Shown here: one piece after another, positions 44,418 through 44,970 of the stretch
How positions within the stretch are numbered: the first letter of the stretch is position 1
Layout: each line of letters opens with the position of its first letter
Origin: a virus
IMG/VR virus record: IMGVR_UViG_3300045988_154566
Coordinates: 70,167 to 134,166 of that record
Length of the DNA: 64,000 nt
Reading direction: 5' to 3' (one strand)
Program-made: the position numbers and the translations under genes
The notes under the pieces: model-generated
Database searches by the model: none
What the model was told of the DNA's origin: nothing
What the model saw: the letters and a program-made list of their open reading frames with translations, nothing else

Positions 44418-44499
44418 AGACGCGAGTGGGAATCGAACCCACCACCCGAAGGCTTCAACGGAGTTGCAGTCCGCGTCAATACCACTCTGACACCGCGTC
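44418..44499 (-). tRNA. tRNA-like, anticodon GCA (Cys) but with a ~15-nt variable arm
   Basis: Acceptor GACGCGG/TCGCGTC, anticodon arm GCGGA-CTGCAAC-TCCGT, T arm GTGGG-TTCGATT-CCCAC; 82 nt. Confidence 0.45.
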
Positions 44500-44500
44500 A

Positions 44501-44845
44501 TTATACAACATATGTATATGTTAATGTAAATTTAAACTTGTTAAATGGAACATATAATGCTTCAATATCAAGTATATCACTATTTTTATCTTGCACTTCT
44601 GTTTCAAAAACACCATTTTTATTATTTATATAAATACTTCCTTTTATTCCATCTGTTTTTTTATAAAAAAATGGATATCCTAACCCCTTAGGTTCTACTT
44701 CCATACCAAACTTTACCATATTTGTTACTGGAATTTCTATATACTCTACTGTTTCAGAAGCTCTATTAGGAAAATTAATATTTTCACTATAATTAGGAGT
44801 TTGTGAAGCAATATCTATATCTGTTATTTGCACAACTTTAAACAT
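44501..44845 (-). CDS. hypothetical protein
   Basis: ORF ending next to a tRNA. Confidence 0.25.
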   Translation of the reverse strand: MFKVVQITDIDIASQTPNYSENINFPNRASETVEYIEIPVTNMVKFGMEVEPKGLGYPFFYKKTDGIKGSIYINNKNGVFETEVQDKNSDILDIEALYVPFNKFKFTLTYTYVV

Positions 44846-44886
44846 TAATTACCACCTTTTCTTATTTTCAATATTTTAGCTACGAG

Positions 44887-44970
44887 CTACGGCAGTGGGA
44901 CTCGAACCCACACGCCACAATGGCACAGGAATCAAAATCCTGCATGTCTATCCAATTTCATCATGCCGCA
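44887..44970 (-). tRNA. tRNA-like, anticodon UUG (Gln) with a long variable arm
   Basis: Anticodon arm CAGGA-TTTTGAT-TCCTG; variable hairpin GCCA-TTG-TGGC; T arm GTGGG-TTCGAGT-CCCAC. Confidence 0.45.

Follow-up and report, generated by a model that had tools for sequence, protein, structure and literature searches.

Why would a virus encode transfer RNAs (tRNAs) for cysteine and glutamine that bear a long variable arm, a feature that textbooks limit, in bacteria, to the tRNAs for Leu, Ser, Tyr and selenocysteine (Sec)? The question is raised by two genes in a 64,000-nucleotide (nt) stretch of viral DNA, positions 70,167 to 134,166 of IMG/VR record IMGVR_UViG_3300045988_154566 (this whole stretch is called the window below). 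One gene, referred to here as Cys-long, encodes a tRNA with the anticodon GCA, and the other, Gln-long, encodes a tRNA with the anticodon UUG; both lie upstream of a gene for a Ro60-like protein (Table 1). The initial annotation of this DNA had noted the long arms and the anticodons, and had proposed that the products might be Y-RNA-like ligands, tRNAs mischarged by way of the arm, or decoys. Judging from their sequences, we consider it probable, at roughly 70%, that both are working phage elongator tRNAs, class II-shaped and with Cys and Gln identity.

Two separate tRNA methods, ARAGORN and the Rfam tRNA covariance model (RF00005), called tRNA-Cys(GCA) and tRNA-Gln(UUG) at the positions in Table 1, in agreement with the initial annotation, and both placed an insert in the variable region. 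RF00005 scored Cys-long at 46.0 bits and Gln-long at 46.5 bits (gathering score 29; E ~1e-7 in scans of 4–10 kb) and aligned over the full model (1–71) for both genes, with an 11-nt insertion exactly in the variable region. In the Rfam gathering run on the whole window, Gln-long was listed and Cys-long was not, the latter being found in the smaller scans; we read this absence as an effect of the speed filter, not of the score. The ARAGORN structures of both genes are canonical, with U8, A14, G18G19, U33, GUUCGA and a 7-nt anticodon loop, and ARAGORN and the Rfam alignments both gave an acceptor/T-stem make-up of 7/5 base pairs (bp), not 8/4 or 9/3. Class II is defined by a variable region of at least 10 nt that forms a stem-loop, and those of Cys-long and Gln-long measure 15 and 13 nt and form stems of 3–4 bp. 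Neither gene has the anticodon and discriminator of a Leu, Ser or Tyr tRNA, GCA being combined with U73 and UUG with G73. Cys-long further has a G15:G48 pair and does not encode CCA, and Gln-long has U1-A72, G2.U71, a 3-bp D stem and a Leu-like D loop. A fold with a standard 4–5-nt variable loop is impossible in either gene because the anticodon stem and the T stem flank the insert directly. These data confirm that both are real tRNA genes with this fold.

Compensatory changes were found in every stem among relatives. Close relatives of Cys-long were drawn from IMG/VR, Logan and ENA, and an exact-pattern scan of JGI metagenome contigs for such relatives returned none. Cys-long is conserved in four related loci (L002, L003, L396 and L397/L398; comparison loci carry L numbers throughout). 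In L397, where the protein encoded beside the tRNA is 76% identical, C3-G70 is replaced by the compensatory pair U3-A70 and the arm hairpin is unchanged; a G.U pair of the variable (V) stem has become A-U in L003, and the loop reads UUUG in L002. In an alignment of 13 sequences of Cys-long architecture (A4), 94% of cells were paired, compared with 73% in shuffles and 32–48% with slid partners, and 15 of 24 pairs changed on both sides. The V helix of this alignment was 100% paired, and two of its three pairs changed on both sides (CG, GU, AU; CG, UG, UA). Gln-long differs from its L397 homologue by six double compensatory changes over the acceptor, D, anticodon and T stems, with no disruptive change. 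U1-A72, G2.U71 and G73 are kept in L397, as is the set UUG, A37, U1-A72 and G73 in both L003 and L397, and the L397 homologue has a shorter, 11-nt variable region (GC-UUAAU-GC-GU). In L002, where the neighboring protein is 97% identical, the slot of Gln-long between tRNA-His and a 114-amino-acid (aa) open reading frame (ORF) holds an ordinary 74-nt tRNA-Gln(UUG), whose anticodon arm is identical to that of Gln-long at 17 of 17 positions.

The identity elements of each tRNA agree with its anticodon. Cys-long has the tRNA-Cys set, which consists of the GCA anticodon and U73; these are the principal determinants for cysteinyl-tRNA synthetase (CysRS), and a long-arm tRNA-Cys, selC*, supports Cys insertion (PMC5389517). 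U73 was present in 42 of 42 distinct tRNA-Cys of related loci; across all sets, 69 of the 72 phage tRNA-Cys with a long arm had it, as did 66 of the 68 with a short arm. Gln-long has the tRNA-Gln set U34-U35-G36, A37, the weak pair U1-A72 and G73, all of them determinants for Escherichia coli glutaminyl-tRNA synthetase (GlnRS) and the bacterial amidotransferase GatCAB. It departs from the E. coli elements G2-C71, G3-C70 and G10 in having G2.U71, C3-G70 and A10. Among long-arm tRNA-Gln(UUG) in general, the usage of N73 and of the first pair mirrors that of short-arm tRNA-Gln(UUG). Cys and Gln codon frequencies in the window are ordinary. Both RNAs would be transcribed with the small tRNA cluster to which they belong and matured by RNase P and RNase Z, and CCA would be added by the host, since none is encoded. 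Host CysRS would charge Cys-long, and GlnRS or the route through glutamyl-tRNA synthetase (GluRS) and GatCAB would charge Gln-long, most likely with the cognate amino acid; the charged tRNAs would then decode UGY and CAR codons normally. We infer cognate charging of both tRNAs from these elements.

Several points weigh against Cys and Gln identity on class II bodies. Seryl-tRNA synthetase (SerRS) ignores the anticodon and tolerates G73 and U73 (PMC5389517), and some serylation of a class II body is conceivable. The acceptor of Gln-long can also be read in an alternative register, G1.U72 with A73, which would look Leu-like. The identity elements of E. coli GluRS include features of a short variable loop, and this requirement could disfavor a long arm on the GatCAB route; the choice between GlnRS and GatCAB is itself a guess. 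Finally, the D arm of Cys-long (4 bp with a 7-nt loop) is class I-like and not clearly class II-like, and Cys-long is overall closest to other tRNA-Cys.

The resemblance of the bodies to Leu, Ser and Tyr tRNAs also bears on a different use, deliberate mistranslation or recoding. SerRS would then charge Cys-long, tyrosyl- or leucyl-tRNA synthetase (TyrRS or LeuRS) would charge Gln-long, and some UGY or CAR codons of phage or host proteins would be read as Ser, Tyr or Leu, in a manner resembling nematode nev-tRNAs or allo-tRNAs. Neither SerRS nor LeuRS reads the anticodon, and both G73 and U73 are compatible with SerRS (PMC5389517); the nev-tRNAs supply a precedent (PMC3333845). In both genes, however, the discriminator has been switched away from the identity of the body, to U73 in nearly all long-arm tRNA-Cys and to G73 in Gln-long in place of the A73 that LeuRS requires. 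The arms are also the wrong size for Ser: those of long-arm tRNA-Cys measure about 15 nt with 3 bp and those of long-arm tRNA-Gln 14.5 nt with 3.5 bp, close to the phage reference values for Leu and Tyr (14 nt, 3 bp) and shorter than those for Ser (18 nt, 5 bp). The sister phage L002 uses a normal tRNA-Gln(UUG) in the same slot. Cys-long is the only tRNA-Cys in the window, and of 80 other phage tRNA arrays, 65 had no tRNA-Cys besides the long-arm form. UGY codons still spell Cys motifs that are essential for function, among them the CxxxCxxC motif of the radical-SAM ORF. Mischarging through the arm, one of the roles first proposed, is therefore not borne out, and we regard a mistranslating function as quite unlikely.

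The position of the genes raises the possibility that the RNAs act outside translation, either as ligands or regulators of the Ro60-like protein in the manner of Y RNAs, or as decoys that soak up a host nuclease targeting tRNAs. Cys-long ends 58 nt and Gln-long 527 nt upstream of the gene for this protein, on the same strand and thus well within the 4 kb expected of a YrlA gene, and the bacterial partners of Ro60 are tRNA-like (PMC4201824). The neighbor had been described as a TROVE/Ro60 gene, of which the adjacency and the likeness of fold to Ro60/Rsr stand and the membership of the TROVE family does not. Its 491-aa product matched Pfam DUF2828, DUF7788 and, weakly, VWA_2, together with PHROG 850 ('RNA-binding protein'). 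The Pfam TROVE domain gave no match in this protein, and a phmmer search against the PDB returned no Ro60 and only a weak vWA match. The five best Foldseek matches in the PDB to an AlphaFold (AF2) model of the protein, made with 36 homologues, were all Ro60/Rsr structures (E 8e-7 to 9e-5), aligned across almost the full length, and the top set included Deinococcus radiodurans Rsr (2nvo, E 7.8e-7) and Ro60 of Thermus phage phiLo. The putative likeness in architecture, to a helical-repeat ring with a vWA domain, is modest, at template modeling (TM) scores of 0.34–0.43 and a predicted local distance difference test (pLDDT) value of 76.6. On the predicted structure, 'Ro60-like' is a fair description at the level of fold only, denoting remote structural homology.

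A wider sample clarified this adjacency. Among 80 related loci fetched by means of the 491-aa protein, with flanks of up to 6 kb on each side, 70 had tRNA genes in the flanks, and tRNA-Cys was often the nearest upstream gene; in the window, other tRNA-handling genes (Thg1-like and YqeY) also lie nearby. These features would suit a non-translational partnership, but the slot beside the DUF2828 gene is held by short-arm as well as long-arm tRNA-Cys. In the converse test, only two of 80 phage loci chosen solely by a DNA pattern for long-arm tRNA-Cys contained a DUF2828-like ORF. A terminator-like hairpin between Cys-long and the Ro60-like gene suggests separate transcription units. YrlA RNAs are defined by a GNCGAAN0-1G motif in the Ro-binding stem (PMC4201824), and this motif was absent from the minus strand, the strand of the gene, between 38800 and 48400; in the same interval, about 4.4 kb on each side of the 491-aa gene, the Rfam models for Y RNA and YrlA gave no match at E≤10. 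The anticodon arms, with full 7-nt loops, and the identity elements are complete in both tRNAs. The adjacency thus reflects synteny in a single phage group, in which the Ro60-like gene occupies a tRNA-rich region, and has no specific link to the extra arm. The Y-RNA proposal was rejected on these grounds, nothing points to a decoy function, and a role outside translation is, taken as a whole, unlikely.

If the two genes are elongator tRNAs, are they peculiar to this virus? Long-arm tRNA-Cys genes were sought with the pattern CTGCAA-N22-29-GGTTCGAATCC, which excludes normal tRNA-Cys and which matched at least 120 times both in viral contigs and in cellular genomes. Among the 120 viral matches listed, 80 were tRNA-Cys(GCA) by ARAGORN, with variable regions of 12–21 nt. 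The acceptor stems of these 80 are very diverse, and the discriminator is nearly always U73. The tRNAs, on contigs of about 6 to 527 kb, mostly lie within tRNA arrays, the median locus having 10 tRNAs. In a scan of 185,579 bacterial and archaeal genomes, five of the 120 matches listed were long-arm tRNA-Cys. In two of the five cases, phage DNA seems to have been binned into a metagenome-assembled genome. One of these tRNAs (L246) shares its acceptor stem and variable arm with a tRNA on a viral contig (L087) and lies in a cluster of 10 tRNAs, and another is on a 7.6-kb contig with four tRNAs. With non-tRNA matches as a yardstick for the amount of DNA scanned (31 viral and 112 cellular, among the matches listed), the density of long-arm tRNA-Cys among these matches is roughly 50-fold higher in viral than in cellular DNA. 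The class is thus widespread in phage DNA and rare in cellular genomes.

Other isotypes take part as well. A complete scan with a strict pattern found 14 long-arm tRNA-Gln(UUG) in IMG/VR, many with Leu-type D arms, and phage tRNAs for Thr, Asn, Ile, Lys, Met, Asp and other amino acids can bear long arms too. No long arm was seen on Ala, Gly or His tRNAs in the first three locus sets; a fourth set brought in one Gly and two His tRNAs that were classed as long-armed. One candidate rule, that long arms are confined to tRNAs of class I synthetases, in which the variable loop faces solvent, was ruled out by the long-armed Thr, Asn, Lys and Asp tRNAs. The reverse phenomenon was also observed: short-arm, type I-like tRNA-Leu with a 4–6-nt variable loop is frequent in phage arrays (84 distinct sequences; for example L004 1694–1769, and the 77-nt tRNA-Leu(UAA) of L014, L015 and L059).

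This fluidity of arm length across many isotypes would also be expected if the genes were neutral or decaying and the hairpins were tolerated insertions in tRNA copies that no longer mattered. Phage tRNA arrays evolve fast and hold odd members, such as the tRNA-Gln(CUG) of the window, whose anticodon loop, GGCUGGA, has G33 where U is almost universal. Against this reading, a hairpin, usually of 3–4 bp, forms in 61 of the 68 distinct Cys V regions, with folding energies that beat those of shuffles (Wilcoxon p = 2e-11), and 27 of 44 tetraloops are GNRA and three UNCG, a strong enrichment of hairpins and of GNRA/UUCG loops. Added to this are the V hairpin left unchanged between phages whose neighboring proteins are only 76% identical, stem changes that are compensatory and not disruptive, and the lack of a second tRNA-Cys gene in the window. 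Decay is, in our view, highly improbable, and on the sequences compared the hairpin is under selection and forms an autonomous structure that juts out from the tRNA core.

The probable origin of such tRNAs, judged by sequence comparison, is identity switching ('remolding') of class II tRNAs. The sequences nearest to Gln-long are tRNA-Leu(UAG), at 81% identity to that of a gut-phage contig (L001) and 77% to that of L048; they differ from it at the middle anticodon base, at position 37 and at the acceptor end. The U1-A72 pair and G73 would result if 1 bp were lost from the acceptor stem and the flanking U and A73 were recruited. Ser- or Tyr-type bodies are common among phage long-arm tRNA-Cys, and the D arms of long-arm tRNA-Cys were closest to those of Ser, Tyr or Leu in 51 of 72 cases, compared with 10 of 68 for short-arm tRNA-Cys. 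Cys-long itself fits this origin less clearly, its anticodon arm matching that of the short-arm tRNA-Cys of L050 and its D arm being class I-like. A 3-bp D stem is present in 83% of short-arm phage tRNA-Cys as against 7–38% of other class I isotypes, and long-arm Thr, Lys, Ile, Gln and Arg tRNAs are also enriched for it; this stem may explain why Cys tRNAs take up the arm so readily.

Two further observations concern the source of arms and bodies. A long-arm tRNA-Cys from IMG/VR (L119) and the tRNA-Ser(UGA) of a cultured cyanophage, Synechococcus phage RB11-B (L524 1495–1581), share 86% identity; the D arm, anticodon stem and T arm are nearly identical, and the differences fall in the acceptor stem, N73, anticodon and arm, so that the pair looks like a snapshot of a switch from Ser to Cys identity. 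In the window, the phage's own tRNA-Tyr has the same arm hairpin, GCCUUCGGG, as Cys-long, and the anticodon stems of the two differ in one pair. A general origin of Cys arms by copying of the same phage's Tyr, Leu or Ser arms was nevertheless rejected: a shared 9-mer occurred in the window only and in no other of 41 Cys/Tyr pairs.

What might the arm do? Phage tRNAs are known to evade tRNA-targeting nucleases through changes in the anticodon loop (PMC10264068). Our leading guess is that the arm marks phage tRNAs as unlike host tRNAs for nucleases or processing factors, and evasion of tRNA-targeting defenses, or a means of telling phage tRNAs from those of the host, would be a reasonable purpose. 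More broadly, we tentatively suggest, as a possibility well short of even odds, that phages keep a private class of remolded tRNAs, class II bodies with Cys, Gln and other identities, in which the extra arm would serve as a functional tag. In the plain version, which would apply to the GNRA/UUCG hairpins of the kind found in the window, the tag may allow escape from tRNA-targeting nucleases of host or phage, or selective handling by the phage's Ro60-like, Thg1-like and YqeY proteins. In a second version, in other phages, the arm would be a pseudo-anticodon that recruits the cognate synthetase to tRNAs with a changed anticodon, namely CUA (with a Gln-like loop) and Ile(UAU) (with a GAU loop).

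The window arms were considered as pseudo-anticodons and rejected: the loop of Gln-long contains UUG, but its L397 homologue is without it. The motif [CU]UGA was found in none of 15 distinct V regions of long-arm tRNA-Gln(UUG), and GCA[AG] in four of 69 Cys V regions, below the shuffle mean. Nothing similar to the pseudo-anticodon signal was seen for Cys, Gln, Lys, Thr, Asn or Met arms. The signal itself was observed as a side finding in tRNAs that all lie outside the window. The motif [CU]UGA occurs in 28 of the 34 distinct arms of long-arm amber-suppressor tRNAs (CUA) from phage contigs, usually inside the predicted loop or across it (shuffle mean 4.8, maximum 12); these tRNAs have arms of 20–30 nt, often a Gln-type U1-A72 acceptor, and loops that mimic the tRNA-Gln anticodon loop (CUCUGAA, UUCUGAG, CUUUGAA), in many cases perfectly, as in CUCUGAA. 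They are found at L031 2139–2237, L040 567–657, L047 2279–2368, L052 3072–3160, L056 447–538, L081 2908–2998 and in the L405–L523 set. Likewise, eight of nine distinct arms of long-arm tRNA-Ile(UAU) contain GAU[A/U] (CAGAUUA, CUGAUUA, CAGAUAA; shuffle mean 1.4), in mimicry of the GAU (Ile) anticodon loop (L072 206–299; L098, L103, L110, L173 and L328). By their sequences, the CUA and Ile(UAU) arms look like natural pseudo-anticodons on tRNAs whose real anticodon has left the identity set of the synthetase, a principle that we found only as an engineered design (PMC7590224).

The virus is a gut-type phage, and the genes around the two tRNAs are of phage type. The window has a G+C content of 32% and 25 tRNA genes, all on the minus strand (ARAGORN); it also codes for a tail-fiber-like ORF and other phage-type genes, and its closest relatives in IMG/VR are viral contigs of 145–150 kb. 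Along the minus strand the order is the radical-SAM ORF, tRNA-Pro and tRNA-His, Gln-long, the 114-aa ORF, Cys-long, a terminator-like hairpin and the 491-aa gene, followed by a second terminator-like hairpin, a c-di-GMP-I riboswitch, an ORF for a small membrane protein, and then AAA ATPase, YqeY-like and Thg1-like genes. Cys-long starts two bases past the stop codon of the 114-aa ORF. A promoter scan was uninformative (22 sites, 20 expected).

Table 1. Positions of the two long-arm tRNA genes and of other features in the window
Feature	Position	Strand	Description and source
tRNA-Cys(GCA), Cys-long	44418..44499	minus	82 nt, 7/5 cloverleaf, class II-like; ARAGORN, Rfam RF00005
Cys-long variable region	44443..44457	minus	UGAA-GCC-UUCG-GGU-G, 15 nt, 3-bp stem, UUCG tetraloop; ARAGORN bracket string
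tRNA-Gln(UUG), Gln-long	44886..44970	minus	84 nt plus 1 trailing base, class II-like; ARAGORN, Rfam
Gln-long variable region	44912..44924	minus	GCCA-UUG-UGGC-GU, 13 nt, 3–4-bp hairpin
Radical-SAM ORF	46181-45249	minus	Upstream of tRNA cluster
tRNA-Pro(UGG) and tRNA-His(GUG), abutting	45001..45150	minus	Head of small tRNA cluster; ARAGORN, Rfam
tRNA-His	45001-45074	minus	
114-aa ORF between the two long-arm tRNAs	44501..44845	minus	No family match; conserved in L002, L003, L396, L397
Terminator-like hairpin after tRNA-Cys, before Ro60-like gene	44399..44414	minus	Identical in L002 and L003
Gene for 491-aa DUF2828 + DUF7788 (vWA-like) protein	42884..44359	minus	Remote structural Ro60/Rsr homologue; Pfam, PHROG, AF2/Foldseek
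c-di-GMP-I riboswitch aptamer	42767-42840	minus	62.3 bits
Thg1-like 3'-5' nucleotidyltransferase gene	39779-40645	minus	Beside YqeY-like and AAA-ATPase genes
tRNA-Gln(CUG)	57788-57861	minus	59.6 bits
tRNA-Tyr(GUA)	59021-59105	minus	
tRNA-Asn, anticodon AUU	61829-61898	minus	70 nt; ARAGORN

Further features of this region were recorded in passing. The riboswitch aptamer lies within a phage genome; a terminator-like hairpin comes before it and a 157-aa ORF with predicted membrane segments after it, and a relative (L401) has a GGDEF-domain ORF nearby. In the tRNA-His, U at position −1 is paired with A73 instead of the bacterial G-1:C73, and the gene directly abuts tRNA-Pro; these features are common to L002 and L003. 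The Thg1-like gene is 4.4 kb downstream of this tRNA-His. The tRNA-Asn has an unusual anticodon, and neither it nor the tRNA-Tyr was listed in the Rfam gathering run. In L399 (1716–1878; neighboring protein 75% identical), adjacent tRNAs with UCA and UUA anticodons, opal- and ochre-suppressor-like, lie in an 11-tRNA cluster upstream of the DUF2828 gene.

Taken together, a 7/5 class II-like tRNA-Cys with the identity marks of Cys recurs in very diverse phage contigs, against the textbook limit on long arms, and it has rarer counterparts for Gln, Lys, Thr, Asn, Ile and Met. Full-text literature, in which subscription journals are thinly covered, gave no account of a 7/5 long-arm tRNA-Cys or tRNA-Gln in phages, and the 7/5 form of tRNA-Cys is apparently undescribed; the closest published kinds are selC* tRNA-Cys, allo-tRNAs and nev-tRNAs. 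If charged as their anticodons predict, these tRNAs would be natural examples of identity switching, and CysRS and the Gln-charging enzymes would tolerate an extra arm, which would be useful for the engineering of orthogonal or tagged tRNAs. If the arm aids evasion of tRNA-cleaving defenses, a structural route would be added to mutations of the anticodon loop (PMC10264068).

Comparison with known systems sets the two tRNAs apart. YrlA Y RNAs are likewise tRNA-shaped, and their genes lie no more than 4 kb from a Ro60-type gene and on its strand, but in these RNAs a Ro-binding stem with GNCGAAN0-1G replaces the anticodon arm and a covariance model of their own matches (PMC4201824); the window tRNAs have neither. 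The selC* tRNA-Cys (Mukai et al. 2017, PMC5389517) also combines a long variable arm with GCA and U73 and inserts Cys through CysRS. It is, however, of 8/4 type, mimics tRNA-Sec, has a longer anticodon stem and is linked to selB*/cysS* in anaerobic bacteria, whereas Cys-long is a plain 7/5 tRNA whose arm is short (3 bp) and whose gene lies among other phage tRNA genes without a selB-like neighbor. Allo-tRNAs are class II-like tRNAs with anticodons other than those of Leu, Ser or Tyr, and some lie in phage tRNA clusters; they are 8/4 or 9/3, with a long D stem closed by a tetraloop and a predicted Ser identity (PMC5389517), unlike the 7/5 tRNAs of the window, whose D arms are ordinary and whose identity elements fit the anticodon. 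Nematode nev-tRNAs, which arose by anticodon shift and join a class I anticodon to a Leu-type class II body, parallel the Leu-like body of Gln-long; they keep Leu identity and are charged with Leu (PMC3333845), whereas Gln-long has G73 for A73 and U1-A72, and swaps with a normal tRNA-Gln. Canonical bacterial Leu and Tyr tRNAs share with the window tRNAs an arm of 13–15 nt with 3–4 bp and a stable tetraloop and, in the case of Gln-long, the 3-bp D stem, but the window tRNAs carry the anticodon and acceptor-end identity elements of Cys and Gln. Finally, the cultured Rhizobium phage B1VFA carries a tRNA-Cys-GCA, annotated at 84 nt, in which the arm reads CCC-GGAA-GGG and the discriminator is U73 (MT770738.1, 344–427 as annotated, 344–430 by ARAGORN); the record passes over the unusual arm without comment. 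It belongs to another sequence lineage and has no Ro60-like neighbor in the 1.9 kb read, and as a cultured phage with such a tRNA-Cys it is usable as a test system.

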